Shown: positions 1,983 through 20,022, numbered from the stretch's first letter. The stretch is 25,061 bases of DNA from Promethearchaeota archaeon (GCA_016930515.1 JAFGGO010000090.1:1-25061); one strand, 5' to 3'. Made by a program: numbers and translations. The notes: generated by a model not told the origin, from the sequence alone.

Positions 1983-3494
1983 TTGAAAAGCTACGATGCT
2001 ATCTTCATTCATCCCCCGAAAAACACATTAGTTCCCAAAAGTATGAATTCGCATTTCGCAAGAGGGACTTATATTTTCGTTCCAATGGGAACATTTGCAA
2101 TTGCAGATCTATTAGAAAAAGAGGGTTTTAGCGTAAAAATAATTAATTATCCATTGGAAAAAATATTAAATCCACACTGGGATTTGCAAAAACATCTCAA
2201 GGAGTTTGAATTTGAATTATGTGGCATAGATCTGCATTGGTTGCATAATTCTTATGGAGCAATAGAAGTTGCAAAGAGCGTCAAGCATGTTAATCCAAAC
2301 GCCAAGGTTTTATTTGGAGGATTTAGCGCTTCTTATTATCACGATGAAATATTGAATCATTTCAAGGTTGTTGACGGTATCGTACGAGGGGAAGGCGAGA
2401 TTCCTTTTTTACAATATCTTAGGGAATATAAAAAGGGATCTGACCTAAGTAATGTTTCTAATTTAACATATAGGAACACATGTGGAAGTATTAAAGTAAA
2501 TCCCTTATCTTATTGTGCCAAAACCTTGGAAAACCTCAATTTTACAAATCTTTCTTTAATGGATCACGCAAAAGAATACATCGAATCGTGTAAAAAGATA
2601 ATGGGAATACCATTCAATTTATCGATCGGTAGGGGATGCCCTTTTAATTGTCCTTTTTGCTCTGGAGGCCAGCAATCGCAACAAAAATTAACGGGTCGCA
2701 TAAAAGTACTTTTAAGAGATCCAAAAAAAATTCTTGATGATATATCTACTTTATATGATGATTATAAAATAGAAAGCGTGTTTTTTGGTCATGGTACATA
2801 TCCTGCTACTTTTAAATATTGGAAAGAATTGTTTGGGTTAATTCGGAATGAAAAATTCGATATTGGTGGTGATATTGAGATCTGGAGATTACCATTTCCT
2901 AAAGATATGTGGAAATTATATTACAAAACATTTACTCAACAAAATACATCTATTAGCATCTCTCCTAGGACTTTATCTCAAAAAGTTCAGAACATGATAG
3001 CCAAAATATGCGATCCAACTTTTAAATTTCCAGAGAATCAAATCGAGAGCTTAATAAAGAACGCTAATTTATATGGTTTGACATTAAGGATTTGGTTGAC
3101 TATTGGTTATCCGTTTCAGACATTAAAAGATATAATCAAGGATTTTTATTTTACTTACAAATGCTTTTGGAAATATGGATTATCCAAATCGAATTCAATT
3201 ACATTTATGAATGAACCATACTATATTTTCCCAAGCTCCCCCGTACATGAACAACCTGAAAAATTTGGATTAAAATTAAAATATAAATCCTTCCTAGAAG
3301 TAATGAACGCCTTTAAACGCTCAAAAATTTCATTTTTTTACAATATTATCAATTACGATAAAAAACACATGTCTGGAGTTTCAATTCAAAACTTGAATAA
3401 GTTACTTCTGGTTAGTTCAATTCCAATGTTTTTAACAGCAAGCAAGAAGAAAAAAGATAAAAAAAAATTAAAAACAAATCCTCCAGAATTATAG
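1983..3494 (+). CDS. B12-binding radical SAM protein, Ta0216/CloN6-like subfamily
   Basis: N-terminal cobalamin-binding domain with GIDLHW..GAIEVA and FGGFSASYY, then RGEGE and GRGCPFNCPFC. TTG start. Confidence 0.8.
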   Translation: MKSYDAIFIHPPKNTLVPKSMNSHFARGTYIFVPMGTFAIADLLEKEGFSVKIINYPLEKILNPHWDLQKHLKEFEFELCGIDLHWLHNSYGAIEVAKSVKHVNPNAKVLFGGFSASYYHDEILNHFKVVDGIVRGEGEIPFLQYLREYKKGSDLSNVSNLTYRNTCGSIKVNPLSYCAKTLENLNFTNLSLMDHAKEYIESCKKIMGIPFNLSIGRGCPFNCPFCSGGQQSQQKLTGRIKVLLRDPKKILDDISTLYDDYKIESVFFGHGTYPATFKYWKELFGLIRNEKFDIGGDIEIWRLPFPKDMWKLYYKTFTQQNTSISISPRTLSQKVQNMIAKICDPTFKFPENQIESLIKNANLYGLTLRIWLTIGYPFQTLKDIIKDFYFTYKCFWKYGLSKSNSITFMNEPYYIFPSSPVHEQPEKFGLKLKYKSFLEVMNAFKRSKISFFYNIINYDKKHMSGVSIQNLNKLLLVSSIPMFLTASKKKKDKKKLKTNPPEL

Positions 3495-3572: not shown

Positions 3573-4289
3573 TTGGTGTTTAAAGCGAAAAAAATATTGA
3601 AAATCAATGTACTTTTAATCGTAATTTTTTTGCTTGCTGACATCCCATTATCGCTTGTTTTGGTTTATTTAGAGAATATTCCTCCTTTTTTGGCATTATT
3701 TTTTGAGTATGTCGAATGTGGGCGCTCAATTTTTATACCATTTTTTCCAAAAATAAATATTTTAGGATTCTTACCGAACGCGGAAGAAATAACCAAATTC
3801 ACATTTGGACATTTGTTCGACATCATCATAGTAGCTAATTTGATCTTACTCGTAGAGACGATAATATATCATTATTATATCAAGAGGAAAGTGAATAATA
3901 AAAAAATTCAGAAATTAATCGGTTTTCAGATATGTCTTGAAGATTTTATCGATAACCCCTCTCATGAATTCTATCCTGATATGGAAAATTTAGAATCTAA
4001 AGAAGATATCATACAAGTATACTTCAAAAATTCTGCGAATAGTTACCTTTACGATAAAGAATTAGATAGTAATGAAATTCATCTTGTGACTAAAAAAGAA
4101 AAATCAAATTTTTTGATTCCTCGTATTTTTTTAAAATTCCATAAAAAATGCGATATAGGGCTATCTTCGTTAAATTTTAAACCATATTCGCCCGAAAAAA
4201 TATCTATTTTATATTCTTTTTCTAAAGCTTTCCTCGTGAACTGTACTCCTTCTTATCCTTGCATTCAAATTCGAGAGGTGGAGCAATAA
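3573..4289 (+). CDS. Hypothetical membrane protein
   Basis: 238 aa with 2-3 N-terminal hydrophobic segments and a soluble C-terminal half. AGGTG RBS before the TTG start. Confidence 0.6.
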   Translation: MVFKAKKILKINVLLIVIFLLADIPLSLVLVYLENIPPFLALFFEYVECGRSIFIPFFPKINILGFLPNAEEITKFTFGHLFDIIIVANLILLVETIIYHYYIKRKVNNKKIQKLIGFQICLEDFIDNPSHEFYPDMENLESKEDIIQVYFKNSANSYLYDKELDSNEIHLVTKKEKSNFLIPRIFLKFHKKCDIGLSSLNFKPYSPEKISILYSFSKAFLVNCTPSYPCIQIREVEQ

Positions 4290-4401: not shown

Positions 4402-5772
4402 ATGGATTGGAGTAATGAAATGAAAGAAATGTTTGAGAAAGTAATGTCGATGACGCCAGAAACATTTCGTGAATCGATAAAACCAATGTGGAAAGAAGCC
4501 GCTGAAAAAACAGCAACGCTGAGAAACTCGGGTTTTATTTCCAAGGACGATTTAATTTCGTCTTTATTCGAAATAACTCCTCAAGCATTCCAACCGACGG
4601 TAGTTAAAGATTTAGAAACGCTTGGTATCGATACAGATCGTTATATTAAGATATCTGAAGCGAGAAAAGCCTATACTCGAACATGGGACGAGCTCAGCGG
4701 AGCATTTTTACCAGGGGTATATCATTTTACCATATATTTAACTGATCGATGCAATCAAAATTGTCTCCATTGTGCTGCTGCGGTAATGGATAAACGTCCA
4801 GAATTGCCCACGGAGACTTGGATTGATATTATTGAAAATCTTGAACAGAGTTTGCGAAAACAGAATCGAAGAGGATGTTACATATGGTTTGGGGGAGAAC
4901 CTACTATTCGCAAGGATTTAAAAGACTTAATCAAATATTGCGGAGATAAGGGATATTATCAAGCGGTTGCCACAAATGGAATTTTATTTAATGAGGAACT
5001 TGCAAAATTATGTGCAGATGTTAAGATGAGTCACGTCTTTATTAGCTATGATAGTACTGATCCTAAAAGAGCAGCTAAAATTAGAGGGTATCCCAAAGCA
5101 AAAGAAGCCGCTGAAAAAGCAATTGAAATGGCTTCAAAATATGGTCTTTTTATCATTGGCAACGCAACTGCTCAGAAAGAGAATTTCGATGAATTGGAAA
5201 CCCTAAAAAATTATTTCGATTCAAAGGGCGTAATTCCCTATTTTAGACCATTGATCAAGCAACGTTCTGCGGATAAAAATTGGGAAGAAATAGGATTAAA
5301 CATGGACGAATATCGACAATTCTACGATTTCAAATATAAACATGTTATAGAAGCTATCAGAAAGGGAGAAGGTTCAACGCTTAATAAATTCTATACCTGG
5401 GACATGGTGCCTTTCATGGAGTGTCCTATTAACGATAAGGAACGCGCAGCGATAGAATGGGGTACGGGATGTCAGGCGTGCCGTTCTATTTCCGGAATTG
5501 ACATCAACGGAGATGTATTTCCATGTGATTATCCTTCAGAATTAACCTTGGGCAATGTTCTAGAGCAAGGTTTTGACGAAATTATGGAAACAGAAATGTT
5601 CAAGGCTATTAGAGATAGAAAAATAAAGGGAAAATGTGCAACTTGCCATCATCTTGAATTATGTGGTGGGGGTTGTAGAGTTCACGCTGAAAATGAAACA
5701 GGCGATTTTCTGGCACCGTTTCCATTTTGCTGGCATAAAAACACTCATAAACACGAAAATCAAGAAAATTAA
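4402..5772 (+). CDS. Radical SAM/SPASM protein with an N-terminal DUF2621/PCP_red-like module
   Basis: CNQNCLHC, FGGEP and ATNG motifs. SPASM cysteines: GCQAC..GDVFPC..CATCHHLELCGGGC..PFC. Start moved from GTG 4393 to ATG 4402, because AGGTGA at 4391-4396 is the RBS and MDW matches the MEW start of the paralogs. Confidence 0.88.
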   Translation: MDWSNEMKEMFEKVMSMTPETFRESIKPMWKEAAEKTATLRNSGFISKDDLISSLFEITPQAFQPTVVKDLETLGIDTDRYIKISEARKAYTRTWDELSGAFLPGVYHFTIYLTDRCNQNCLHCAAAVMDKRPELPTETWIDIIENLEQSLRKQNRRGCYIWFGGEPTIRKDLKDLIKYCGDKGYYQAVATNGILFNEELAKLCADVKMSHVFISYDSTDPKRAAKIRGYPKAKEAAEKAIEMASKYGLFIIGNATAQKENFDELETLKNYFDSKGVIPYFRPLIKQRSADKNWEEIGLNMDEYRQFYDFKYKHVIEAIRKGEGSTLNKFYTWDMVPFMECPINDKERAAIEWGTGCQACRSISGIDINGDVFPCDYPSELTLGNVLEQGFDEIMETEMFKAIRDRKIKGKCATCHHLELCGGGCRVHAENETGDFLAPFPFCWHKNTHKHENQEN

Positions 5773-5784
5773 AGGCGAGAATAA

Positions 5785-7185
5785 ATGGAATGGGAAAATA
5801 ATACTCAAATCCTCTTTAATAGGATTGTAGAACAAATGCCGCAAGGATTTAGACCCTCAGTTGAACCTTTAATCTTAGAAGCTTCTGAAAAACGATGTCT
5901 TGAACGAAATGGAGCATATATCAATGATGCGGATGTGGTTTTAGGTATTTTTGACATTATCCCCGAAGCATTTAAACCCGTCATGGTCGAGGACTTAACG
6001 GCTTTAGGAATAGATGTGGAAAGATATATCGAACTTAGGGATATAAAAGATAGATTAAAGGTCTCTTGGGAAAAACTAGAACGAGGATTCCATCCAGGAA
6101 ACATTCATTTTGCCATGTATCTTACCGATAAATGCAATCAAAGATGCATTCATTGCGCTGCAGATGATTTAATACCCAGACCAGAATTACCTTCTGAACA
6201 ATGGATCCAAATCATAGAAAATGTCGAAACAGGTCTTAGAAAACAAGGAAGACACGCCTGCTTCGTATGGTTTGGAGGAGAACCAACATTACGTAAAGAC
6301 ATTGGCGAAATAATGAAATATTGCAACGATAAAGATTACATTCACGCCCTTATTACAAACGGCGTTCGATTTGATGATGAATTCGCAAAAATGTGTAAGA
6401 AAAATAATATTAGCCATGTGTTCGTTAGTTTTGATAGCGTTGACCCTGAAAAGAATGATAGATTACGAGGATTTAAAAACTCCTTACAATATGCAAAGAA
6501 AGCCATTGACATGTGTCTTAAATACGGAATTTTCGTTTGTTCTTCCATTACGATTATGAAAGATAATATTAACGAACTTGAAGAATTGAAAGCTTTATCT
6601 GAGAAATGGGGATCTCAACCTTATTTTAGGTGCGTTGTAAAACAAAATCGAGCTGCAGAACATTGGAGCGAAATAGGCCTTTCGAAGGAGGAATATAGAA
6701 AAATGTACGATTTTAAATTTAAACACGCTATTGAAACGATAAGAAATGGTCAGGCTGGAACTCTTCCTGCTTACGAAATCTACGACATGATGCCATTCAT
6801 GGAAAAACCCAAATCGGATAAAGAACTCGCAGCGATCGAATGGGGTGTAGGTTGTTTGGCTTGTAGGACGATGATGGGGGTAGGGATCGATGGTACTATT
6901 TATCCAGCGGGATATCCTACAAATCTAACGCTTGGAAATGCACTAAAAGACAATTTCGAGGATGTATTGAACTCCCAACTCTATAAAGATATTCGGGATA
7001 GAAAAAGGATAAAAGGAAAATGCGCCAGTTGTCATCATCTTGAACAGTGCGGAGGAGGTTGTCGCGTGACCTCTGAATATATCACGGGAGATTTCTTTGG
7101 CTCTTTCCCGTTCTGCTGGCACGAGAACGATCACGAACACGATACAATTGATTTAAAGAAGAAAGAGATTGAATTAATTGAATGA
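5785..7185 (+). CDS. Radical SAM/SPASM protein with an N-terminal DUF2621/PCP_red-like module (tandem paralog of 4402-5772)
   Basis: CNQRCIHC, FGGEP, ITNG, GCLAC and CASCHHLEQCGGGC..PFC. Collinear with the upstream gene over its full length. Confidence 0.88.
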   Translation: MEWENNTQILFNRIVEQMPQGFRPSVEPLILEASEKRCLERNGAYINDADVVLGIFDIIPEAFKPVMVEDLTALGIDVERYIELRDIKDRLKVSWEKLERGFHPGNIHFAMYLTDKCNQRCIHCAADDLIPRPELPSEQWIQIIENVETGLRKQGRHACFVWFGGEPTLRKDIGEIMKYCNDKDYIHALITNGVRFDDEFAKMCKKNNISHVFVSFDSVDPEKNDRLRGFKNSLQYAKKAIDMCLKYGIFVCSSITIMKDNINELEELKALSEKWGSQPYFRCVVKQNRAAEHWSEIGLSKEEYRKMYDFKFKHAIETIRNGQAGTLPAYEIYDMMPFMEKPKSDKELAAIEWGVGCLACRTMMGVGIDGTIYPAGYPTNLTLGNALKDNFEDVLNSQLYKDIRDRKRIKGKCASCHHLEQCGGGCRVTSEYITGDFFGSFPFCWHENDHEHDTIDLKKKEIELIE

Positions 7186-7200
7186 CCAAGAGGTGAAAAT

Positions 7201-8616
7201 GTGCGAGTATTAATTCTCTCGGCTAGTAGGGAAATTGTCCACGTGATGGTTCCTCCATTGGGAGAAGCATATTTAGCTTCATATTTGCTCTCTCGAGGGC
7301 ATGAAGTAATATTATTGGACTTAACTTTGAGTAATGATTATAAAAAAGATATTTCGAACACTATTTTCGATTTTAATCCTCAAGTCATTGGCATTTCGAT
7401 TCGTAACATTGATTCGACTACATATCCGGGAAATTTATTCTTTTATCTTCCCGTGAAAAATGTCATACAATATGTAAAACAGCTCGTTGAACCAGATATC
7501 CCCATAATACTGGGAGGTGCGGGCTTTTCCATTTTTTCGGAAGAAATTCTAAAGGATTTAAATCATAAAATGGGAATCATAGGTGATGGAGAATATGTTT
7601 TCGAGGCAATAATCAAAAAACTTCAAAATGGTGAAGATCCACGCACAATAGAAAGAGGGGTTTGTTATTTGGATAATCAAGGAAATTATCACCAAACTCC
7701 GCCGTGGCGCGTGGAAAATTTAGACGAATTGCCTTTTCCCATAAGGGATATGATGGATAACGACGCATATCTCATTGATCCATTAGTTCAATCTGGACCT
7801 TTTTGGGGAAATATTCAAACTAAACGGGGTTGCCCCATGAATTGCATATATTGTAGTTATAGATATATAGAAGGCTCTAATGTTCGATATCGTTCTCCCA
7901 AAAATATAGCCGAAGAATTAGATTTAATCGTGAATAATTATGATATAAAAAATGTATTCATTGTCGATAGTCTTTTTAATATTGATTATAAACACGTAAA
8001 AGAAACTTGTATAGAAATTAATAATCAAAATTTAGATTTTAAATGGGGCGCAAATTACGTTCCGAGCAATAAATTTATAGATTTAATGCCGCTCATGAAA
8101 GAAAGCGGAGCGGCTCATTTTGCAACTGGAATTGAATCCTTATCCGAAGATATGCTAAAAAATATGAAAAAAAATAGGACTGCTGACGAGGCAATGCTCA
8201 CATCTAAAAGATGTGTAGAATTGGAAATAGAACAATTAATGCATGTAATGGTTGGAGGGCCAGGAGAAACTCGAGAAACGATTCAAGCGTCTTTAGATCG
8301 CTTGGAAATGATGGAAAGCTACCACGGAGCACTTTGGCAAGGGGATGGAGACGTTCTCATCTTCGTGGGTATAAGAATTTATCCTAATACCATCCTTCAA
8401 ACTATTGCAGTAAAAGATGGTATAATAAAAAAAGGAGAAAACCTGTTAAAACCTAAATTTTACCTAACACCGAACATTAAAGAAGTCGATCTTTTTCAAA
8501 TCGTTCGGAATTATGGTATTAAAAATCCCAGGTGGATGATGCCTGGTCTGGGATTTAATAATCCCAAAGGATTTGCTGAAATGAGTAATATACAATTCGC
8601 AAAATATCAAAATTAA
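7201..8616 (+). CDS. B12-binding radical SAM protein, GISIRNID type (BzaD/TsrM/ladderane-cluster-like group); putative C-methyltransferase
   Basis: PPLG, GISIRNID, LGGAGFS, GDGE, QTKRGCPMNCIYC and GGPGET motifs. AGGTGA RBS at 7191-7196 before GTG. Confidence 0.8.
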   Translation: MRVLILSASREIVHVMVPPLGEAYLASYLLSRGHEVILLDLTLSNDYKKDISNTIFDFNPQVIGISIRNIDSTTYPGNLFFYLPVKNVIQYVKQLVEPDIPIILGGAGFSIFSEEILKDLNHKMGIIGDGEYVFEAIIKKLQNGEDPRTIERGVCYLDNQGNYHQTPPWRVENLDELPFPIRDMMDNDAYLIDPLVQSGPFWGNIQTKRGCPMNCIYCSYRYIEGSNVRYRSPKNIAEELDLIVNNYDIKNVFIVDSLFNIDYKHVKETCIEINNQNLDFKWGANYVPSNKFIDLMPLMKESGAAHFATGIESLSEDMLKNMKKNRTADEAMLTSKRCVELEIEQLMHVMVGGPGETRETIQASLDRLEMMESYHGALWQGDGDVLIFVGIRIYPNTILQTIAVKDGIIKKGENLLKPKFYLTPNIKEVDLFQIVRNYGIKNPRWMMPGLGFNNPKGFAEMSNIQFAKYQN

Positions 8617-8662
8617 CCATAAAAAATTCAAAATAAAAAACTTATAATGTAGGAGAAAAAGA

Positions 8663-9835
8663 ATGGAATGGAAACCAGAAGTAAAAGAATTATATGATAA
8701 AATAGTAGAAAAGATGCCGGAATTTATAAAACCCGTTATTGCACCAGAGCTTTTGAAAAAGGTCGAGATTAAATGTATAGAAAGGAACGCACAAAAAATT
8801 GCTGAAATGGATTTAATAGTAGGTTTATTTGAAGTAACGCCTCCTACTTTCCAACCAACAGTAATTGCAGATCTGGAAGAAATGGGCGTGTCTTATGATA
8901 GATATCTCGCAAAAGTGAAATCTGATTTTAAATGTAATACTGATCTTAATCAGATGATCGAAGATATTTCTAAAATTTGTGATATTTCAAGTGTAACTTT
9001 CAATAGAGAAGCGATGTGGAAATCTTTCAATACCTTTAAAGATTTTTTTAAGGGTGCTCCCGTTTCGATCAGAACAACCACTAAACCTATTGAAAAAAGG
9101 GATGTAGCAGTAAGATATGTGGAATTTTTTATGCCTCACAATCCAGATCCTTATACCATGGCAATAAAAGAAGGTTTGCTCTTGAAAAATGGACATCCAA
9201 TTCACGAAATGATTATCGAATCTATGAATACTTTCGAAATGATGGGATACGGAGTTGATGTAGATGCAAAGATGGGGCTATCGAAGATTTGGCCTTTTGT
9301 AGTACCTGGTTCGATCGAACCTATTTTTTCAATGAAATCCGTACCGCCAGCATTTAAAAAATACAAGCAATATTTTGAAGAACACGGTTTAACAGTATTC
9401 AGTCTTTTTGCGTTCGACTTTTTAAATCATACAATGAATATTTATTTCATGCTCAAGCAACCAGCGCAATCCACACATGAAAGTTGCGTAAAATTGGTGG
9501 AAGATTTGGGACTTACTCCCGCATCTGAGGAAATAATGGAAGGGTGTCGCAACGCGGCTCATTTAAACTATACATTTAGTTGGGAATCAGGAAAAATCGA
9601 ACGATTATGCTTTGGTGTGACTGTTGATGACGAAAAAGATGTTCCAACACATCTACATCCTTTAATTAAAGAATTCGTTGAAAAAGCCCCCCTACAGAGC
9701 GAATCGAGAAAATTTATTTGGGGCGCAACTTTTACACCAAGAGGAGTTTATTATAAAATTGAAAATGATTACAATGGTACGATGGTGGATTTCTTAGGAA
9801 TGGGATGCAAGGCAGGAATTGAAAAATATAATTAG
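8663..9835 (+). CDS. ABBA-family aromatic prenyltransferase (NphB/CloQ type) with an N-terminal DUF2621/PCP_red-like module
   Basis: After about aa 90 there is a ~300-aa domain with DPYTMAIKEGLL..GHPI, YGVD....GLSKIWPF, MNIYF, YTFSWESGKIERLCF and YYKIENDY. These match recalled NphB/CloQ motifs (DPY..v.kGL...gHP, GfkKty.F, NLYF, TL.W...kI.RLCF, YyKl). Confidence 0.8.
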   Translation: MEWKPEVKELYDKIVEKMPEFIKPVIAPELLKKVEIKCIERNAQKIAEMDLIVGLFEVTPPTFQPTVIADLEEMGVSYDRYLAKVKSDFKCNTDLNQMIEDISKICDISSVTFNREAMWKSFNTFKDFFKGAPVSIRTTTKPIEKRDVAVRYVEFFMPHNPDPYTMAIKEGLLLKNGHPIHEMIIESMNTFEMMGYGVDVDAKMGLSKIWPFVVPGSIEPIFSMKSVPPAFKKYKQYFEEHGLTVFSLFAFDFLNHTMNIYFMLKQPAQSTHESCVKLVEDLGLTPASEEIMEGCRNAAHLNYTFSWESGKIERLCFGVTVDDEKDVPTHLHPLIKEFVEKAPLQSESRKFIWGATFTPRGVYYKIENDYNGTMVDFLGMGCKAGIEKYN

Positions 9836-9864
9836 ATTTGTCTATTTTATAGGTGATTTTTAAA

Positions 9865-11016
9865 ATGAGAATAATAATCGATGGACCAATAAACAAGGAT
9901 TTAATTACTAAAATTAAAAATCAAGGGTTTCCAGTGACACATTGTATAATACATGTGCCACAAAACCCTATGGGAAATTCGTCAATTTTTCTTCCTAAAA
10001 AAATTCCTTCTTTCGATGATTTCAAAGATATTACTTCATTTTTATTAGATAACGATATTATTCCAATTGCTGGATTGGATTCGACTTGTCAAGGGAATCT
10101 TGAGGCTCACATACAGCAATATAATGCAATAAATGCATTAATTCAAACTTTAGAGGCTATAGGTTATAAGGATATATTGGTTTCTTCTCCAAATAATATT
10201 GGATTTTTTAAAGAACATGCGCCATCAATGAAGATTGTTTTATCATATTCACAATATGTAACCTCAATCAATAGGGGTAAAATCTTTTTTGAAATAGGTG
10301 CAGACTCTATTATTCTCCACCCAGATATAATTAGGTATTTTAATATATTGAAGAATTTTATCAAGCTAAAAAAGCAATTTAAATCGTCTAAAGATATAGA
10401 TTATATTTTACCATTAAATATCGGATGTAATTGGGGGTGTATTCATTGGTATCATCATCATAACCTGCAGAGTCATCGTACTACAAATTCTCCTGTTTTT
10501 TCAAATCAAGAAAATTTATCCAATGTTTTATATGAATTTGATTATCCACTATTAAACTGTTGGAGAGAGAGAATTAAAAATCCAGAAAATATTTTAAAGG
10601 CGGGATGGATATCGCCAGTAAATATAGGTAAATACGAGAATTTAGGATACGATACATTTACTCTCTATACGAATGGATTTTCGAACGAAAAAACAATGGA
10701 AATCATCAATAACTATGTTGAAAAGCGAAACAAAATGAGCTTAAAAAACATCATTAACATTCCTGAACCCTATGGAGAATATTGGAAGCAGATGGAAGGC
10801 AAGGACTTTTTGTTCGATTTAAATACATCTGAAATAGAGACTTTTTGTTTGAATTATCCGTATGAAGCTCACTATCCTTCGGAAAAAATCATAAACGAAT
10901 ATTGTAATGATTTTACTAAAATTTTGAAAATAAGAAGCTCTAAAGAAAGAGAAAATGTATTAACAACAATAAAAAATAAAATAAAAAATATGGAAAAAGG
11001 AGCCATTACGAGGTAA
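9865..11016 (+). CDS. Divergent peptidase U32-family (Fe-S hydroxylase-like) protein
   Basis: Aligns with the two downstream U32 genes (LDSTC, NIGCNWGC..H....SH, GWISP...Y..LG). Start moved to ATG 9865, with RBS AGGTGA at 9851-9856. Confidence 0.7.
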   Translation: MRIIIDGPINKDLITKIKNQGFPVTHCIIHVPQNPMGNSSIFLPKKIPSFDDFKDITSFLLDNDIIPIAGLDSTCQGNLEAHIQQYNAINALIQTLEAIGYKDILVSSPNNIGFFKEHAPSMKIVLSYSQYVTSINRGKIFFEIGADSIILHPDIIRYFNILKNFIKLKKQFKSSKDIDYILPLNIGCNWGCIHWYHHHNLQSHRTTNSPVFSNQENLSNVLYEFDYPLLNCWRERIKNPENILKAGWISPVNIGKYENLGYDTFTLYTNGFSNEKTMEIINNYVEKRNKMSLKNIINIPEPYGEYWKQMEGKDFLFDLNTSEIETFCLNYPYEAHYPSEKIINEYCNDFTKILKIRSSKERENVLTTIKNKIKNMEKGAITR

Positions 11017-11020
11017 AAAG

Positions 11021-13060
11021 ATGAGGATATCCTTGGCATGTAATTGGAAATTAGATTTATTAGATTTAATCGAACAAGATTCTAATCTAAAGAATGTAGT
11101 TAATGATTTTTACGGAACTCCAGATATGAATTTTACTGGATCTGGTCGTCCCTTCTTTCTTATGGCGAAAAGAAATAGAAACGAGATTGAAAATTTTATT
11201 AATAAAGTCCACGATTTAGGCTTAAAATTTACTTGGTTATGGAATGGTGAATGTCTTGGATACTATAAATTTAATTCACAAGAGCAAACGAAAGCGTTAA
11301 ACGAATTAGATTGGATAGATGATATGGAAATTGAATATCTAACAGTTACGGATCCATATTTAGCTCAATTTGCCAAATATTACCATCCAAATTTAAAGCT
11401 TAAAACATCTGTTATTGCTGAAATTAATTCACTCACACGAGCACTCCAATGGCAAGATATTATCGGTTCAGAAGGAGTGTTAACTTTATCAATAATGTTG
11501 AATCGTAATTTTCCTTTACTCGAGGAAATTAGAGATACAATAACTTGTGATATCGAATTACTGACTAACGATTGCTGTCTCAACGAATGTCCATATCGAT
11601 TTTTTCATTACAATGAATGTTCACACGCCAGCCAAACGCACGACTTTCTTGAGGGATATTACAATGATTGGGCTTCTATTGCATGCCAGAACCAGAAGTG
11701 CTTCAATCCTGAGCAAGTTATTATGTGTAAATGGATACAACCCTTAGATCTAGAAAAATATATCAATATGGGCATTGATTACTTTAAAATATCAGGTAGA
11801 AGATACGGAACACGCTGGATATTTAACGCTTTAAAAGCATATACTAGCAAAAATTTTAAAGGAAACCTTGGAGAAATTTTTAATGGTTATTCATTTGTCT
11901 CAGATCCCTTGATACTAGCTGGGAACCAATTCTCTGAATTCTCAATAAAGCAGGAAAAAATGGGCACCCACGCCGATAATCAAAGCATAATGTTAAGCGT
12001 ACCAGAATTTGACGCAAAATTAAAAGCTGATTTGTTAATTGACTTCGTACAAAATTTACCTTATGGTGGTGCCCGATGTGCAGAAAATTGCGGTGTATCT
12101 TGCTTTTATTGTCATAGTTACGTTAATAAAGCCTATTTTCAACCAGAAGGAGGTATAACCGAATCTTATAAGAAATTCATGTCCTATCTTTATAATTATC
12201 TGAATAAAGGAGAAATGTTTCTCTCAAAAGAACAAAGAAAACTTAAGAATCCTGTTAAAGAATCGGAATCAAATACTTATATTGGAATTCCCTGGGATCC
12301 TAAAGCACAAGAATTTCTTGATGAAGTAATGATATTGATACCAAAAGAAATGCAAGAGCCGGCAAAAAAAGGAATAGGCTTTACAGCTGAAAGGACTGCT
12401 GAAAAGCAAAATAAAACGAAAGTTAATATCGAGTTATTAATCGCAATAATTCTTGAATTAGTTCCTCAACCTTTCAAACGCGATTATATTGAATTTTTAA
12501 TTGAAAAAAAAATCAAATTATCGAACTATATGAGTGAAGCTGAAATAAGACAAATCAAAAATATACCATTTAGCAACCAATTAATCCCCCTGAAGAATAA
12601 TGAAGGGGAAATAAAAACGAATATAAATAAAATAAAAGAAAAACAAAATAAAAAAAAGGTGAAAATAAAATTGAATACAAAAGAAGAATGGGAAGCATAT
12701 CTCACGCGCTTTATGAAAGCATACAATGAATTACCAGATGTGGAGCAAATGCTTGAACCAATCGGATCGGTGGTATTTCAATATGAAATAACCGATAAAC
12801 CCGAGATGAGTTATTGGCAATACATCAATGGCAAAAAGATGGATTGGGGAATGGGTAAATTTTCTAATGGAGATATTCCAATGGTCATACATAAAACGAA
12901 TTTTGAAACGATAAAAAAAGTAAATTCTGGAGAATCTGACCCCATCCAAGCAACAATGGCTGGTAATTATGTAGTAGAAGGAGATGTTACCAAGCTCATG
13001 GCCTGTGCACCCTTGCTTCCGCTTAATGCGAAAGCGCATGAACAAGTGTTTAAGAATTAA
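11021..13060 (+). CDS. U32-family Fe-S protein fused to a DUF2621/PCP_red-like module and a C-terminal SCP2 domain
   Basis: GSGR, WNGEC, NDCCLNECP, GIDYFKISGR and CAENCGVSCFYC motifs. Module at about 12290-12530. SCP2 signature SGESDPIQATMAGNYVVEGDVTKLM within about 12680-13040. Confidence 0.82.
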   Translation: MRISLACNWKLDLLDLIEQDSNLKNVVNDFYGTPDMNFTGSGRPFFLMAKRNRNEIENFINKVHDLGLKFTWLWNGECLGYYKFNSQEQTKALNELDWIDDMEIEYLTVTDPYLAQFAKYYHPNLKLKTSVIAEINSLTRALQWQDIIGSEGVLTLSIMLNRNFPLLEEIRDTITCDIELLTNDCCLNECPYRFFHYNECSHASQTHDFLEGYYNDWASIACQNQKCFNPEQVIMCKWIQPLDLEKYINMGIDYFKISGRRYGTRWIFNALKAYTSKNFKGNLGEIFNGYSFVSDPLILAGNQFSEFSIKQEKMGTHADNQSIMLSVPEFDAKLKADLLIDFVQNLPYGGARCAENCGVSCFYCHSYVNKAYFQPEGGITESYKKFMSYLYNYLNKGEMFLSKEQRKLKNPVKESESNTYIGIPWDPKAQEFLDEVMILIPKEMQEPAKKGIGFTAERTAEKQNKTKVNIELLIAIILELVPQPFKRDYIEFLIEKKIKLSNYMSEAEIRQIKNIPFSNQLIPLKNNEGEIKTNINKIKEKQNKKKVKIKLNTKEEWEAYLTRFMKAYNELPDVEQMLEPIGSVVFQYEITDKPEMSYWQYINGKKMDWGMGKFSNGDIPMVIHKTNFETIKKVNSGESDPIQATMAGNYVVEGDVTKLMACAPLLPLNAKAHEQVFKN

Positions 13061-13120
13061 AAAAAAACAAAAAACATTTTTTTTTATCAAACAAAAATTA
13101 AAAAAATTAGGTGATAATAC

Positions 13121-14527
13121 ATTCGATTCAATGTCGCAACTAACTGGGATTTAAAATTGATTGACGAATTAGCGAAATATCCCGTTTCTGATTTATATGG
13201 TGCATCAAACCATTCTATTGTTGGTGGTGGTCGACCTTCCTTTTTACTTCCAGATGTTAATGATGAATACATAGCAGAATATATTAAAAAAGTGCATGAG
13301 AAAAAAATGGAATTTTCTTTTCTACTAAATGCTCCCTGCATGAATAATATGGAAACAAACTCTCAGTATCATAAGGAACTTATCGATTATTTACAATGGA
13401 TTACTGATATCGGAGCGGATAATGTGATCGTTACGATCCCATTCTTGATACAAATCATCAAAGAACAATTTCCCAACTTGAAAGTTCGTGTTTCAACAAT
13501 TTCACATATAAATAGCGTAAACCGTGCAAAATTTTACGAAATGCTAGGGGCTGATGAAATAACACCTGATATCATGATAAATCGAGATTTTAAAACATTA
13601 AACAAGATAAAGAAAGCTGTAAAATGTAAGATCGTTTTACTTCTGACTGATGGATGTCTTTTTCAATGTCCTTTCAGACACTATCATTATAATACTCTTG
13701 GACACGCTTCGCAAACACACCAACAATTTGAGCGTAATTATGTAGATACATGCATTATTAATTGTTCAGTGATTAAATTTTCAAATCCAGAGGAAGTTCT
13801 TAAATGTAGATGGGTGCGTCCGGAAGATTTATCTCATTACGAAGACATCGGGATTACGGATTTTAAAATCGCGGGAAGGCGAATGACTACTGATTGGATT
13901 CTTAGAGCGGTTAAAGCTTTTTCCTCTCGTAAATACGATGGAAACCTTGTGGACATTATTCAAGGCTTTTCGATGTCTCACGGTGGTTTAGAACAAAAAG
14001 ATCCTAATCTTACACTCTCTAAAACAGTTGGAAAGGAGTCCCAATCAAAATTATACATCGATAATTCAAAATTAGATGGATTTATTGAGTTTTTTAAAAA
14101 GCAAAATTGTGTTGCGATGTGTGATGAGTGTAATTATTGCAAGGAGTGGGCCAAAAAAGCCGTCATATTAAATAAAGAAGAATCGGAAAAATATGTACGA
14201 TCCCTCCAAGCTTATATAGACGATCTTAAGACAAGTAGAGAATTTGGAATTTCAAAAAAGGACTCTAAAATAGAAAAATCGAATGGATTTAAATGGTTAC
14301 CCGAAACAGAAAGATTATTTAACGAACTCATTGAATTATCTCCACAACAATTTCAATCAATCGCCAGAATGGTCATCGCCTCCCTCGCAGAGGAAAAAGC
14401 AAAAAAAAGAGCCTCGTTAGAAGTTCAAAATCAAGATATCGTTAGCGCATTTATTGAAGGTACACCAGGACCATTCCAAGCAGATATGAAGGATGGCCTT
14501 AAAAAACGCGGACTTTTAAAAGAATAA
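13121..14527 (+). CDS. U32-family Fe-S protein with a C-terminal DUF2621/PCP_red-like module; probable ATT start
   Basis: GGGRP, LNAPC, DGCLFQCP, FKIAGR and CVAMCDECNYC motifs. The frame extends upstream of TTG 13157 as (I)RFNVATNWDLKL, homologous to MRISLACNWKLDL. RBS AGGTGA at 13109-13114 and an in-frame stop at 13115. Confidence 0.82.
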   Translation: MRFNVATNWDLKLIDELAKYPVSDLYGASNHSIVGGGRPSFLLPDVNDEYIAEYIKKVHEKKMEFSFLLNAPCMNNMETNSQYHKELIDYLQWITDIGADNVIVTIPFLIQIIKEQFPNLKVRVSTISHINSVNRAKFYEMLGADEITPDIMINRDFKTLNKIKKAVKCKIVLLLTDGCLFQCPFRHYHYNTLGHASQTHQQFERNYVDTCIINCSVIKFSNPEEVLKCRWVRPEDLSHYEDIGITDFKIAGRRMTTDWILRAVKAFSSRKYDGNLVDIIQGFSMSHGGLEQKDPNLTLSKTVGKESQSKLYIDNSKLDGFIEFFKKQNCVAMCDECNYCKEWAKKAVILNKEESEKYVRSLQAYIDDLKTSREFGISKKDSKIEKSNGFKWLPETERLFNELIELSPQQFQSIARMVIASLAEEKAKKRASLEVQNQDIVSAFIEGTPGPFQADMKDGLKKRGLLKE

Positions 14528-14673
14528 CATGGAGGAAAAAAAATTAACCTTATATAGTTTTGGCTCAAAGATTAGCACTATATGAAACCTAAATTTTATA
14601 AAAATTTATGAAAATAAAAAATATCTATAAAAACAATGAATAATTAAAAAAAAAACGAAAAAAAGTGAATAAA

Positions 14674-15603
14674 ATGGAAGGAATATATTTTGATGTCGTA
14701 TTTCCATTAGTATTACTTGCTTGTCTATTATTTTTGATATTACGTGGTATATCTAAAAAATATCCTGAACAAGAATATATGACAAAATCCGAATTTATGA
14801 AGGATTGGCTTAAAGACCACGGACAAGCACATAAGCTAGACGAACAATTTGAAAAAATGCAAAAAGACCCAGCTGGAAAAATATACATGCCATTAACTTA
14901 TAAAGGCGCAAAAATCTTTATGAAAATGGGCCTAACACCAAATCAAGTATCTATTGTAAATCTCATTTTATCGTTCTTTATTTTTTATGGCGTTATTATT
15001 GCTGTAAGAGGACAATCGTTGGATTTATATTCCCAACAACCGTTTTATGGTTGGCTATTTATTCCATTAGCCCTTTTAGTATTCTTTACTGGAATCGTGG
15101 ATGGAATCGATGGAGCAATCGCAAGATTACGAAATATTAAAACACGACGCGGTGGATGGTTCGATAATGTAATTGACAGGATTAGTGATACTTTAATGCT
15201 AGTTTGTTTTGTTCCTGGAACCATTTCTATCGTAATGGGCCTCGATTTTCGATGGGTTGTATGGACTAATATTATCTTGATATTTCTTTATGAATACATG
15301 AGAGCAAGGCACGAAGGATTAGGATTAAAAGAAACTAAACCGTTTATGGGAGAACGAATCACCAGGATATTAACTATGGGAACCTTTTTCTTAATTTACG
15401 GTATCTCGAGTTTTGGCGTTATGATAACTTTTTTGATTGATCCCCCTTCTGCTGAAACGCTTTGGGCAGTAACTCATGGTGGTGTAACGGCTTGGGTAAT
15501 GATAATTATGCAATTGAGCTTGTTATTAATAATGGTCTTTTCGTGTTTGAAATTAGCTAATTATTCTTACAAGGGATTGAAAGAGTTGGATAATAAAGAA
15601 TAA
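14674..15603 (+). CDS. CDP-alcohol phosphatidyltransferase family protein
   Basis: TPNQVS plus the signature DGIDGAIAR-x7-GGWFDNVIDRISD and multiple TM helices. The start is ATG 14674 or GTG 14665. Confidence 0.88.
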   Translation: MEGIYFDVVFPLVLLACLLFLILRGISKKYPEQEYMTKSEFMKDWLKDHGQAHKLDEQFEKMQKDPAGKIYMPLTYKGAKIFMKMGLTPNQVSIVNLILSFFIFYGVIIAVRGQSLDLYSQQPFYGWLFIPLALLVFFTGIVDGIDGAIARLRNIKTRRGGWFDNVIDRISDTLMLVCFVPGTISIVMGLDFRWVVWTNIILIFLYEYMRARHEGLGLKETKPFMGERITRILTMGTFFLIYGISSFGVMITFLIDPPSAETLWAVTHGGVTAWVMIIMQLSLLLIMVFSCLKLANYSYKGLKELDNKE

Positions 15604-15677
15604 ATAGGAGGCGAAACAAAACGAAAAAATTTAAAATAATAACCTATGGAACAATAATTGCAGTATATTATGTATTA

Positions 15678-16973
15678 TTGCATTTTATTTTTCCCAACTC
15701 GTGGGTATCTGTTACTAAAAATTCCATCGATAACTTCTTTACGAATTTTTTTGTATATTGGTGGTTAGTATTTCCGTTACTTGCCCTTCTTTTACTTTTT
15801 GGATTGAATATCTATTATGGGATACATTTTTTGGCTTCATTTGGAACTGGTTATAAACCTAAAGGTGATAATTACGAAAATATTACCATTATGATTGCTT
15901 CCAAGAACGAAAAAGCACTATTGGAAAGAACATTAAAATCCATAATGGATAACGATTACCCTAAAGAAAAGATTCAGTTAATTGTAATAACTAGCGGATC
16001 GACTGATGGATCGGCTGAATTTTGTGAAAAATTTTTCAAACAAAATAATACTATTAAAGCTGATATTATATCTGCCGATCTTCCTAAAAAAGGCAAACCA
16101 ACTGCCCTAAACTATGGATTAAAACTTGTAAAACATGATATAATACTTTTTTATGATTCTGGTTGCATTTTACAAAGAAATTCCTTGAAAAATTTAATTG
16201 CACCTTTAAAAGACCAGAAAAAAAAAGCTGTAATTGGACCCGTATTGGTTGAAAATTGGAACACTAATAAAATTACCAAGGGAATTTTTCTTGATTATGC
16301 AATCGTCTCTGGAGGTGGATTGCTTTTTGAAGTAAAGAATAGGTTAGGTTCTTCTGCATATTTATATGGACGTAATTTTGCGATTCGGACAGAATTATTG
16401 AAAAAATACGGTGGATTTAACGAAGATTCCATGACAGAAGATCTTTATCTTCATATACTGCTCAATTTAGATGGAATTAAGATTTATTATTCACCCAAAG
16501 CAAGAGTATATGAATATGTACCTCATACATCGGAAATATTGAAAAAACAAAGAACCAGATGGATTGCAGGATATACAGTCGATGCGCCCCAATTAATGGC
16601 CATGAAGAACGAAGAAAGAGATGGTAAAAAGATTATTATTGCTAGAAACATGACTATGACTTTTATAGGAAATATGGATACTTGGATGCCAATAATAATC
16701 GTTTTTACAATAATATATGCTCTCATAGGAGAATATTACTTAATGATATGGAATTTATCCCTTTTGTTCTTTCAATTCGGGTTTTTATTCAACGCTATTA
16801 GGAAATACGCTGATGGGCATTATAGTTTATTATTTTACTTTCTTGTTAGCGGTTATATCCACCTATACATGTTCTTACGTCAATTTTCCCTTCCTAAAGA
16901 ATTGAGTTGGGAAAAAACACCGATGATACTAGAAAGACAAGAAGAAGAAGTAAAGGCTTTAACTATTAAATAA
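15678..16973 (+). CDS. Membrane glycosyltransferase family 2 (cellulose synthase/IcaA-like)
   Basis: ASKNE, GSTD, GKPTALN, TED and QRTRW motifs, with N- and C-terminal TM helices ending in WEKT. Confidence 0.85.
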   Translation: MHFIFPNSWVSVTKNSIDNFFTNFFVYWWLVFPLLALLLLFGLNIYYGIHFLASFGTGYKPKGDNYENITIMIASKNEKALLERTLKSIMDNDYPKEKIQLIVITSGSTDGSAEFCEKFFKQNNTIKADIISADLPKKGKPTALNYGLKLVKHDIILFYDSGCILQRNSLKNLIAPLKDQKKKAVIGPVLVENWNTNKITKGIFLDYAIVSGGGLLFEVKNRLGSSAYLYGRNFAIRTELLKKYGGFNEDSMTEDLYLHILLNLDGIKIYYSPKARVYEYVPHTSEILKKQRTRWIAGYTVDAPQLMAMKNEERDGKKIIIARNMTMTFIGNMDTWMPIIIVFTIIYALIGEYYLMIWNLSLLFFQFGFLFNAIRKYADGHYSLLFYFLVSGYIHLYMFLRQFSLPKELSWEKTPMILERQEEEVKALTIK

Positions 16974-17019: not shown

Positions 17020-18468
17020 ATGAAAATATATCTAATTAACGCTGCACCGACGATAATATCCAAAGATAACAAAAAGGAAACTCTATTTCAAACTTCAGCA
17101 CCCCCTTTGGGATTAATGTATCTTGCATCGGCCCTCAAAAATGCAGGACACGCCGTATTCATCGTGGATCAACCGGCCTTCAATCTCACAAATGAGGAAG
17201 TTATAGAATTTATCAAGAAAAAAGATCCGGATGTTGTTGGATTTTCAACATTATGTGCTTCTTTTGAAAATGTAAAAGAAATATCTAAAGAACTAAAAAA
17301 ATGGAACCCTAATCTATCAATTATAGTTGGCAATTATCTTGCCACTTTTTATGCACATAACATATTGACAAAATACGATTGGGTCGATATTTGTGTGAGG
17401 GGTGAAGGTGAAAAAACCGCTCCTGAAATTTTAAATCGATTAGAATCCAATAAAGACCTTAGCGAAGTCGAAGGAATTAGTTATAGAAGCAATGGAAAAA
17501 TAATAGAAAACAAGGACAGACCATTGATAAAAGATTTAGATTCGATTTCTTTTCCAGATAGAAAACTCCTTCCAGCCTTTTATAAAAATAGGATCGGAGG
17601 TGTTGACATTACTAAACGAAAATTTGCAACAATGGTCTCTTCGAGAGGATGCCCTTATTCATGTAATTTTTGCGCTTGTACGGCCTTTTCGAAAGGATTA
17701 TGGAGGACAAGATCTGTTGATAACATTATAGACGAAATATCCATGTTATCAGATGAGGGCTATCGGGAAATTCTTTTCATAGATGATAATTTTACGCTTA
17801 ATCAAAAAAGAATAAATGAATTTTGCATCAAAATTAGAAAGCAAAATTTAGATATTGTTTTTATAGGAGATGGTAGGGTAAATAATGGGTCTGTTGAATT
17901 ATTTAAAACTCTAAAAAAAGCTAACTTTGAAATCTTAATGTTTGGCATTGAAAGTAGCTCCCAAAGAGTTTTAGATTCTTATAACAAAAAAATAACGCCT
18001 GAAATGAGCAGAACCGCGGTAAACAATGCTAGAAAGGCGGGTTTTAAATTTCTTGTTGGGACTTTTATGATTGGTGCTTATGATGAAACCTACCAAGAAG
18101 CAATAGACACGCTTAAATTCATTTCCTCATTGGACATTGATTTTCCACATATAATTTTCACTCGCGCATTACCTGGTACTCAAATTTTCAACGAACTCAT
18201 AAAAAAGAAAATTATTGATGAAGAACAGTTTTGGGAAACAGGTGTAGACATCATCGATTTACCAGGTTCAAAAATGAACAGAGAAGTTATTTTCAAGATT
18301 ATTAAGGACCAATTTCACTTGAAATTTTTTAGACCGAAATACATAATGAAAGCGTTCACAAGAACATTAATAAGCAAGTATAGACGAGAAATAATATTCA
18401 ATCACTTAAATCTTCGAGATATTAATAAATTTGTAAAGATTATTAACAATCCTCCCGATTTATTTTAA
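17020..18468 (+). CDS. B12-binding radical SAM protein (class B methylase-like)
   Basis: PPLGLMYLA, RGEGE, SSRGCPYSCNFC, DDNFT and FGIES motifs. Confidence 0.88.
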   Translation: MKIYLINAAPTIISKDNKKETLFQTSAPPLGLMYLASALKNAGHAVFIVDQPAFNLTNEEVIEFIKKKDPDVVGFSTLCASFENVKEISKELKKWNPNLSIIVGNYLATFYAHNILTKYDWVDICVRGEGEKTAPEILNRLESNKDLSEVEGISYRSNGKIIENKDRPLIKDLDSISFPDRKLLPAFYKNRIGGVDITKRKFATMVSSRGCPYSCNFCACTAFSKGLWRTRSVDNIIDEISMLSDEGYREILFIDDNFTLNQKRINEFCIKIRKQNLDIVFIGDGRVNNGSVELFKTLKKANFEILMFGIESSSQRVLDSYNKKITPEMSRTAVNNARKAGFKFLVGTFMIGAYDETYQEAIDTLKFISSLDIDFPHIIFTRALPGTQIFNELIKKKIIDEEQFWETGVDIIDLPGSKMNREVIFKIIKDQFHLKFFRPKYIMKAFTRTLISKYRREIIFNHLNLRDINKFVKIINNPPDLF

Positions 18469-18495
18469 GATAATAATGAAAAGAGAAAAATATCC

Positions 18496-20001
18496 ATGAA
18501 AATAGCATTAATTAATCCAAGTCTTGAAACAAACATATATACTCCATGGGTTCCTTTAGGTATTTTATATTTAGGAACCATCTTGAAAGAACACGGTTTT
18601 AATGTAAAACTACTAGATGCCGCTGCCAAATTTTACAACAAATACGATGTATTAGAATGGCTCAAGACAATAAAACCAGATGTGGTTGGAATTAGCGTTT
18701 TTACAATAGCATTTCTTCCATCGATTGATCTGATTAAAATTATTAAAGATTGGAATCCTAGTATTAAGATTATAATCGGTCATTATCATCCTACCATGGA
18801 ATACGAAAACATCCTTAATAAATACGGAGATTATGTTGATTATTGCGTGCGAGGAGAAGGGGAATACACTTTTTTAAAGTTATGCGAATTTCTCGATAAA
18901 CACGATGATATACTACCCACTGAAATTCCAGGATTAGCTTTTCAAGATCCAAAGAAAAATTTGATCGTTACTCCTGATGCTCCTTTAATAAAAAATCTTG
19001 ACGAACTTCCTTTCCCAGATAGGACCTTAATTGATTACAAGTATAAATGGAATTTTTCGGGTTTTGAATTTTCGAATTATAACCTAACTTCAATCGTCTC
19101 ATCTAGAGGGTGTCCATTCAATTGTTCCTATTGCGCCTGTACTAAATTCGCACAACGCAGGTTTAGACCGAGAAGTCCTGAGAACATTATTGAAGAAATG
19201 CAAATAATAGCAGATCAAGGATATACTCAATTGAATTTTGTTGACGATAATTTCACGCTCCAACCCAAACGCACCATTAAAATCTGCCAATTAATGAAAA
19301 AAGAGAAGATTGACATTGATTGGCACACTGATGGTCGAGTTGACCAAACATCTCAAGACATGTTGGTGTGGATGAGAAAAGCCGGGTGTAAATCTATTTG
19401 GTACGGCTTTGAAAGCGCTAATCAAAGAATTCTTGATATATACAATAAAAGAACCAAGGTTTCACAATTTAACGAGGCGATTAAAAAAGCCAGAAAAGCA
19501 AATATCGATTTAATCGTGGGATTGTTCATGTTGGGAGCACCTACCGAAACCATAGACGAAGTTAAAAATACCATTCAGTTTGCCGTAAGATCCGATATCG
19601 ATGTTCCCTTTTTTAATGTTGTTGAAATCTTTTCGGGTACGAAATTTTGGCAGGATTACACCACTCAAGGAATAATACATCCAAATGAAAAAATAAATGT
19701 GCCTGTTGCTGGTAAAATCCGAGAAGCTGAAAGGTGGGAAACAAATTCAAGGGTAATCGATTTTCTATTACCTCAAAAGGAGCGTGACCAGATGCTAAAC
19801 GAAATACAAGGCGCATACAAGCAATTCTTCTCGTTTGATAGGAAAAAAATATTGCTCTTGAAATTAATCCTTCGAGCAATAAAGAGCAAATTCATGCTCA
19901 ACATGGGATATAATATCGCAAAGAATTTTAAGAGCGCCATGGAGGCAATGACGACCTTCAGAAATTCCAAACCAAGAGGATTTGGCGTTTACGACGAATA
20001 A
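18496..20001 (+). CDS. B12-binding radical SAM protein (class B methylase-like)
   Basis: PLGILYL, RGEGE, SSRGCPFNCSYC, DDNFT and YGFES motifs. Confidence 0.88.
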   Translation: MKIALINPSLETNIYTPWVPLGILYLGTILKEHGFNVKLLDAAAKFYNKYDVLEWLKTIKPDVVGISVFTIAFLPSIDLIKIIKDWNPSIKIIIGHYHPTMEYENILNKYGDYVDYCVRGEGEYTFLKLCEFLDKHDDILPTEIPGLAFQDPKKNLIVTPDAPLIKNLDELPFPDRTLIDYKYKWNFSGFEFSNYNLTSIVSSRGCPFNCSYCACTKFAQRRFRPRSPENIIEEMQIIADQGYTQLNFVDDNFTLQPKRTIKICQLMKKEKIDIDWHTDGRVDQTSQDMLVWMRKAGCKSIWYGFESANQRILDIYNKRTKVSQFNEAIKKARKANIDLIVGLFMLGAPTETIDEVKNTIQFAVRSDIDVPFFNVVEIFSGTKFWQDYTTQGIIHPNEKINVPVAGKIREAERWETNSRVIDFLLPQKERDQMLNEIQGAYKQFFSFDRKKILLLKLILRAIKSKFMLNMGYNIAKNFKSAMEAMTTFRNSKPRGFGVYDE

Positions 20002-20022
20002 TAATATATATGGATAATAATC

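Follow-up and report, generated by a model that had tools for sequence, protein, structure and literature searches.

The window analysed here is the whole of a 25,061-nucleotide (nt) stretch of DNA from a Promethearchaeota archaeon (GCA_016930515.1 JAFGGO010000090.1:1-25061), which corresponds to contig C142 of a host genome of 4.0 Mb that is 94% complete. The closest homologues of its genes are mostly labelled Promethearchaeota (Lokiarchaeota). Positions 4402-14527 contain seven intact open reading frames (ORFs), all on the plus strand. They encode two radical SAM/SPASM proteins (rS1 and rS2), a B12 radical SAM enzyme, an ABBA prenyltransferase of the NphB/CloQ type and three U32 proteins (U32a, U32b and U32c), one of which is fused to an SCP2 domain. 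A sequence-only reading of the window had proposed this set of co-oriented genes, spaced 4-60 nt apart, in an archaeal host; the ORFs, the recomputed gaps, Pfam and the homologue labels all agree, with U32a a weak match but homologous. The cluster is an optional and modular trait from which the prenyltransferase has been lost repeatedly while U32c and SCP2 were kept, and we propose that it may form an O2-independent tailoring line for a hydrophobic molecule of the membrane.

The first gene is rS1 (4402..5772, +), followed by its paralogue rS2 (5785..7185, +), the B12 radical SAM gene (7201..8616, +), the prenyltransferase gene (8663..9835, +), U32a (9865..11016, +), U32b (11021..13060, +) and U32c (13121..14527, +). 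The gaps between them are, in order, 12, 15, 46, 17, 4 and 60 nt. The fourth gap becomes 29 nt if U32a starts at the ATG at 9865; its first possible start, a GTG at 9853, falls inside the ribosome-binding site. The 60-nt gap requires an ATT start for U32c at 13121, 6 nt past an AGGTGA (window 13109-13123). Orthologues of U32c have ATT, GTT or ATG at the matching position, after AGGTGA, and ATT 13121 is probably the start codon. Rfam gave no match, and promoter and terminator scans gave counts close to shuffled-sequence level. The gene order is not due to chance, because the order rS1-rS2-(B12)-prenyltransferase-SCP2/U32 recurs in all 21 of the related loci that are long enough to show it, which is the conserved gene neighbourhood that the sequence-only reading had called for.

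The prenyltransferase (8663) is a member of the Pfam family PTase_Orf2 (PF11468; E 3.5e-58, 197.7 bits). Of 62 homologues, 58-61 retain its residues R137, R151, K208, N259, Y261, R314 and K365, and these residues align with those of AmbP1 and EpzP. We take them to be the diphosphate-binding residues; the two arginines mark an enzyme of the Mg-independent type. The predicted structure (predicted local distance difference test, pLDDT, 93) is the expected PT barrel of ten antiparallel strands, which matches AmbP1 with Z 34.9 and a root mean square deviation (rmsd) of 2.3 over 286 residues. The same barrel is found in AmbP1, AmbP3, FamD1, EpzP, NphB and CloQ (PDB 5yk9, 5y4g, 5ynt, 4ee6, 1zb6 and 2xlq; Z 31-35, rmsd 2.3-2.7), at 22-30% identity and with the basic residues of the diphosphate site. 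The peptide-modifying ABBA-fold enzymes PagF and PatF match the model at Z of only 14.7-15.9. By analogy with its nearest relatives, 8663 would prenylate an aromatic acceptor. The 8663 family differs from the AmbP1/NphB/CloQ-type enzymes in its extra module of 82 amino acids (aa), which may be N- or C-terminal, in an occasional fusion to SCP2 and in forming an archaeal clade. ABBA prenyltransferases are enzymes of secondary metabolism (PMC7253389).

The U32 family (PF01136) passes its cut-off for U32c (E 3.8e-13) and U32b (E 3.3e-7). U32b consists of the U32 domain, a cysteine-rich segment, the 82-aa module and a C-terminal SCP2 domain, the last at E 3.7e-4 and 21.2 bits against a cut-off of 21.3. 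U32a is a divergent U32-fold protein which lacks the module; its Pfam match is weak (E 0.028), and it is related to U32c by BLAST (E 1e-22) and by a common set of cysteines and histidines. All three proteins retain C73, C179, C183, H189, H195 and C215. These are invariant in U32c, as are C330/334/337/340, and the four invariant cysteines of the U32 set could bind a [4Fe-4S] cluster. U32c ends in the module and is predicted to be a TIM barrel (pLDDT 85). Its best match by sequence (E 3.4e-8) and by structure (E 7.7e-10, template modelling score 0.71 by target) is the U32 protein Mk0906 from Methanopyrus kandleri (PDB 5d88), which differs in having only 18% identity and no C-terminal segments.

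The carbons that tested U32 enzymes hydroxylate are aromatic or heteroaromatic (PMC10990095). UbiU and UbiV co-occur, and the four-cysteine motifs of these proteins (and of RlhA/TrhP) are CX6CX15-16C / CX6CX16CX38C or CXnCX12CX3C (PMC6747719). The cluster resembles the UbiT/UbiU/UbiV system (PMC6747719, PMC10990095) in combining an SCP2 carrier with U32 proteins, two of which occur as a pair and one of which is fused to SCP2, in its anaerobic host and, for UbiV, in an upstream cysteine and CX3C element. It differs in being archaeal, in its cysteine pattern (C73...CX3C...CX3C with two histidines and an extra four-cysteine segment), in having a single U32c as its core, and in its SPASM enzymes, B12 methylases and optional ABBA enzyme; it has no Ubi pathway or quinone partners. 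NCBIfam models gave 25 of 534 bits for TrhP and no match for UbiU/V. Because their cysteine spacing differs from that of UbiU and UbiV, the three proteins are by sequence a separate subfamily. The prephenate-dependent hydroxylation that the sequence-only reading had taken from the known U32 enzymes is weakened by this spacing and would follow by analogy.

In every untruncated locus, and also in the reduced clusters described below, SCP2 is either part of a fusion or encoded by an adjacent gene. Its fusion partners come from three enzyme classes, namely U32b in this window, the prenyltransferase (L002, L099) and radical SAM/SPASM enzymes (L002, L006, L008), which ties SCP2 to the pathway as had been proposed. 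U32a and U32b are present or absent as a pair across the loci, and where they are absent SCP2 persists as a stand-alone gene. The U32 subfamily is also found in Bacillus (33% identity, 99% cover). On a Bacillus wiedmannii plasmid (CP024685; L071:10619-21264) it lies with an MFS transporter, aminodeoxychorismate synthase and mutase, two ATP-grasp ligases and a DAHP synthase, a context that supports small-molecule chemistry for the subfamily.

rS1 has the CX3CX2C motif and all of the auxiliary cysteines, and its 11 cysteines, eight of them auxiliary, are invariant in 26 sequences. rS2 is 50% identical to rS1 and lacks one auxiliary cysteine in 22 of 26 sequences. Neither protein reached the NCBIfam equivalog cut-offs for Tes, AhbC/AhbD/NirJ, MftC or PqqE; the best was AhbD/NirJ with 132 of 500 bits, and the tetraether synthase Tes gave 57-59 bits against a cut-off of 450. 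The product of 7201, with B12-binding and Radical_SAM domains, is an optional component and candidate methylase that is absent from three of the 21 full loci. It scores below the cut-offs of TIGR04072 (ladderane-island lipid; 272.5 of 360 bits) and BzaD (aromatic C-methylase; 199.5 of 450 bits). No bza or ladderane neighbours were found around the 7201 loci, and the cluster lacks the cobamide, ladderane and heme contexts of BzaD, TIGR04072 and AhbC/AhbD/NirJ, the best models for 7201 and for rS1 and rS2. SPASM and B12 radical SAM enzymes are known modifiers of glycerol dialkyl glycerol tetraethers (GDGTs) (10.1101/2025.10.20.683597, PMC13459092). The archaeal enzymes Tes, Gms, Grs, Gmm and Ted are like those of the cluster in their O2-free radical SAM chemistry and act on membrane lipids; no SCP2, U32 protein or prenyltransferase is described alongside them in PMC13459092 or 10.1101/2025.10.20.683597, and the host's Tes is encoded outside the cluster.

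A helical, DUF2621-like module of about 82 aa is carried by rS1 and the prenyltransferase (N-terminal in both), by rS2, by U32b and by U32c, and is absent from every other protein of the host genome. In distant loci it occurs at the C-terminus of the prenyltransferase, and in one U32c it is doubled. In the atlas it matched DUF2621/PCP_red at the 0.8 level only. A structural match to the AAA+ lid domain (Z up to 8.1) was rejected, as it is within the chance range for helical bundles. Most probably the module would serve to bring the enzymes together in a single complex. A fusion of module and prenyltransferase (380 aa, 32% identical) is also present in a cultured anaerobe, Acetivibrio clariflavus DSM 19732 (AEV67552.1; P0401). 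At another locus (L076:199-8556, GC 34%) such a fusion adjoins a multi-domain methyltransferase, an ABC transporter and a class II terpene-cyclase-like (AstC-like) gene, possibly a different meroterpenoid cluster.

Of 400 Asgard genomes, 32 have the prenyltransferase; all of these belong to the window's own class, and 29 are among the 135 genomes of its family. Single-contig genomes of the same order gave no match to it. U32c is present in 35 of the 135, these being 28 of the 29 prenyltransferase carriers and seven others. The cluster is an optional trait of about a quarter of one Loki-type Asgard family. The triad rS1-prenyltransferase-rS2 recurs at 54% identity on a contig of 43% GC. The U32c of L029 (G060:C3), from the distant family f7, nests among f1 sequences with starred support, which suggests transfer of the cluster within the class. 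Two genomes that have the main cluster also carry a second, paralogous one (L031 and L032; G020:C76 and G019:C102) with the order 3573-rS1-prenyltransferase-U32a-U32b-rS2 and no U32c or B12 gene; in L031 this paralogous cluster includes a second prenyltransferase. Two further loci (L008:15954-20355, L086:7926-12321) contain a third SPASM paralogue that carries the module and is accompanied by an SCP2 of its own and by a GlcD/GlcF-like pair of FAD/Fe-S oxidoreductases; this set is another plug-in module. Open-literature searches that combined Asgard archaea with the prenyltransferase, U32, DUF2621 or TIGR04190 returned no description of this gene set, as the sequence-only reading had supposed, with most subscription papers outside their scope.

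We read four of the seven U32c carriers that have no prenyltransferase (G220, G034, G021 and G269). G220 (100% complete) and G034 have the order 1983-3573-rS1-SCP2-U32c, where 1983 and 3573 are the two genes upstream of the cluster. G021 (98% complete) has 3573-SCP2-U32c-B12 and an in-frame deletion scar; its 159-aa ORF was considered as a module-SCP2 fusion and proved to be this scar. In G269 a third SPASM paralogue, an SCP2 and a GlcD/GlcF-like pair precede U32c. All four lack both the prenyltransferase and rS2. In the U32c tree the four reduced lineages are separate, each is nested among genomes with the prenyltransferase, and the starred branches require four changes. The prenyltransferase and rS2 have therefore been lost together four times independently, with U32 and SCP2 intact. 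The remaining genes are intact, with pairwise dN/dS of 0.11-0.17, a value that also covers time before the loss. It follows that the ABBA enzyme cannot be an obligatory first step that replaces UbiA, as had been proposed for a linear pathway; two of the lineages that contradict this are 98-100% complete. U32c and SCP2 apparently serve a function in which the prenyltransferase is not needed, and the prenyltransferase and rS2 behave as one add-on. The possibility that the U32 proteins act independently of the prenyltransferase product, which had been named as grounds for rejecting a common pathway, is realised to this extent, and the co-conservation and the prenyltransferase fold stand.

The two upstream genes are co-conserved companions of the cluster. 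Gene 1983 (1983..3494, +) encodes a B12 radical SAM protein (TIGR04190/Ta0216-like, below the cut-off). It is a linked and more widespread partner, present in 57 of the 135 family genomes and in 28 of the 29 prenyltransferase carriers, and absent from the U32c carrier G021. The membrane protein 3573 (3573..4289, +) has a conserved N-terminus of about 105 aa with a hydrophobic helix, and a hypervariable tail; the dN/dS of its gene is 0.58-0.75. It had no usable match in Pfam or the atlas, and no conserved modifiable motif is visible in its tail. Its gene, usually preceded by 1983, lies immediately upstream of the cluster in almost every locus, and does so in each of the four reduced clusters; the protein is a candidate anchor.

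Downstream of U32c a CDP-alcohol phosphotransferase (archaetidylinositol-phosphate-synthase-like) and a GT2 glycosyltransferase (14665..16973, +) form a lipid head-group island. Elsewhere the cluster often adjoins genes for a CDP-alcohol phosphotransferase, GT2, O-acetyltransferase, UDP-galactopyranose mutase, sulfotransferase, LuxE-like ligase and further B12 radical SAM proteins. The island occurs without the cluster at L090, L092 and L097, and the cluster is often inserted into it. At 17020-21459, 3' of the GT2 gene, lies a tandem array of three B12 radical SAM paralogues (35-41% identical; BchE/HpnJ-like, below the cut-off). Other genomes conserve them together with the CDP-alcohol transferase island, and they are candidate lipid methylases or ring synthases. 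The last part of the window (21460-25061) is a minus-strand series of small membrane proteins, some with zinc-ribbon N-termini, and similar genes flank the cluster at other loci. In three genomes the cluster is directly upstream of a block of actin-family genes (L004:12077-14432, L005:11844-14188, L009:8874-11235). A DeoC/AroA'-type aldolase adjoins some loci and is not counted as part of the cluster, because it is also found at the cluster-free locus L088.

The host encodes chorismate synthase, chorismate mutase, polyprenyl synthase, four UbiA-family genes, UbiD and Tes, the last being near universal in the family. MqnA/D of the futalosine menaquinone route were not found in it. Across the 135 family genomes no protein exceeded the cut-off for cytochrome b (PF13631), Sdh_cyt (PF01127) or NarI/HdrE (PF02665), NrfD (PF03916) was found in one, a non-carrier, and eight, two of them carriers, had weak bd-oxidase-like matches (PF01654). 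NuoH (PF00146) and hydrogenase cytochrome b (PF01292) did not exceed the cut-off in any of five carriers. Controls were positive in each search; ETF:quinone oxidoreductase and NDH-2 lay outside the search set. Because these membrane partners in electron transport are absent or do not track the cluster, the product is unlikely to be a respiratory quinone.

We therefore propose that the cluster is an accessory, modular and O2-independent tailoring line for a hydrophobic, SCP2-bound molecule of the membrane whose ring is aromatic or otherwise electron-rich, and we regard the chances that this is correct as about even. In outline it would resemble UbiT/U/V coupled to the ABBA step of a meroterpenoid route. 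We infer the reactions, the substrate, the complex and its role from the folds, the residues, the co-conservation, the gains and losses of modules and the fusions. In the base module SCP2 would hold a greasy substrate, the hydrophobic part of which would be made without 8663. U32c would hydroxylate it with prephenate as the oxygen donor, by analogy with UbiU/V, rS1 would usually add a radical C-H step, for example C-C coupling or oxidative removal of a side chain, and 3573 may anchor or regulate the unit. Where present, the ABBA enzyme would use Friedel-Crafts chemistry to attach a further prenyl group, and rS2, whose auxiliary cluster has a free site, might act on the prenylated form in a cyclisation or oxidative step. 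The U32a/U32b pair would add further oxygen, 7201 could C-methylate the ring, and the shared module would assemble the enzymes into a complex. Strains would thereby make a differently decorated family of lipids that tunes the membrane or envelope, and not a respiratory carrier. This proposal is supported by the conserved order, by SCP2 that is always retained and is fused to three enzyme classes, by an overlap of 28 genomes between carriers of the prenyltransferase and of U32c, by the four joint losses that left U32c in place, by a U32a/U32b pair that co-occurs as UbiU and UbiV do, by the recurring triad, the Bacillus context and the lipid head-group neighbours, and by a host that has chorismate synthase, chorismate mutase and polyprenyl synthase but lacks quinone partners.

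Several observations weigh against this proposal. The UbiU/UbiV (RlhA/TrhP) cysteine motif was sought in the U32 proteins of the cluster and is replaced there by C73, C179-X3-C183 and C215 with H189 and H195, a spacing unlike that of any tested member. Chorismate mutase is present in 34 of 36 near-complete family genomes, and neither type was found in the carriers G010 (99%) and G007 (98%), which do have chorismate synthase; one of the searches had no positive control. Since these assemblies are fragmented, the result counts only weakly against a strict dependence on prephenate. The cluster contains no enzyme for an aromatic core, so that the ring is deduced from the enzyme families only. The reduced clusters are products of deletion, as the scar in G021 shows, and their dN/dS includes time before the loss. 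Finally, the bacterial module-prenyltransferase fusions (Deltaproteobacteria, loci read) stand alone, with no radical SAM, U32 or SCP2 neighbours, and the module therefore need not signify a pathway complex.

Some of these observations fit a non-aromatic tailoring of ordinary archaeal ether lipids (archaeol, GDGTs, glyco- or phospho-head groups), in which the U32 and radical SAM enzymes would oxygenate, cross-link or methylate and the ABBA enzyme would add an isoprenoid unit to an alkene or hydroxyl. The prenyltransferase is dispensable, the cluster is frequently inserted beside head-group genes (CDP-alcohol transferase, GT2, O-acetyltransferase, UDP-galactopyranose mutase, sulfotransferase), Tes is near universal, SPASM and B12 enzymes are known to modify GDGTs, and two carriers have no detected mutase. 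However, tested U32 enzymes act on aromatic or heteroaromatic carbons (PMC10990095), the nearest structures to 8663 all prenylate aromatics, 7201 is BzaD-like, rS1 and rS2 fall far below the Tes cut-off, and the island exists without the cluster; we consider this explanation unlikely. The paper on extended tetraethers (PMC13003381) concerns Altiarchaeum and offered no link to the cluster. The linear route of the sequence-only reading, in which prenylation by the ABBA enzyme in place of UbiA is followed by hydroxylation and methylation to give a new membrane redox quinone, has in its favour the likeness of SCP2 and paired U32 proteins to UbiT/U/V, the BzaD-like methylase, the SCP2-prenyltransferase fusions and a host in which MqnA/D were not found. 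It is hard to reconcile with U32c and SCP2 outlasting four prenyltransferase losses, with six families of electron-transport membrane proteins that are absent or do not track the cluster, or are mostly in non-carriers, and with a patchy presence (29/135) and variable tailoring genes that are unlike those of a respiratory cofactor, and we regard it as improbable.

A diffusible secondary metabolite of sediment anaerobes, such as a meroterpenoid antibiotic, signal or antioxidant, would account for the patchy and mobile distribution (the f7 U32c among f1), for the secondary-metabolite character of ABBA enzymes (PMC7253389), for the U32 subfamily in a Bacillus biosynthetic cluster and for the relative that adjoins a terpene-cyclase-like gene and methyltransferases. 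SCP2 is obligatory, though, and the loci share no co-conserved exporter, resistance gene or scaffold synthase, which leaves this product with a similarly poor prospect. A protein or peptide could instead be the target, one example being the 3573 tail, with the shared module as the substrate-recognition element. This is suggested by SPASM enzymes and some ABBA-fold enzymes (PagF, PatF) that modify peptides and by a 3573 that is always first in the cluster and has a weakly constrained tail. Against it are a barrel of the small-molecule NphB/AmbP1 type, an SCP2 domain that points to a lipid and a tail without a visible motif for modification, and we think it most improbable.

Returning to the tailoring line, its bolder form is that Loki-type Asgard archaea make an unknown class of aromatic-isoprenoid membrane lipid, using an anaerobic complex that is tag-assembled and centred on SCP2, and that draws on a new subfamily of U32 hydroxylases, on the first ABBA prenyltransferase from archaea and on plug-in modules that give strain-specific variants; this we put forward tentatively, as a possibility that may well prove wrong. 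The natural deletion series (base module, then with prenyltransferase and rS2, with U32a and U32b, and with the B12 enzyme) is a ready-made order for experiments. The Bacillus wiedmannii plasmid cluster is a tractable setting for U32 hydroxylation, and Acetivibrio clariflavus is a cultured carrier of the module-prenyltransferase fusion. The cluster extends soluble ABBA prenyltransferases to archaea and could show whether prephenate-dependent hydroxylation by U32 proteins is general, outside ubiquinone and RNA as well. In an archaeal group that is related to eukaryotes, it also points to an unknown lipid, possibly a sediment biomarker, and to anaerobic chemistry that has no description so far.

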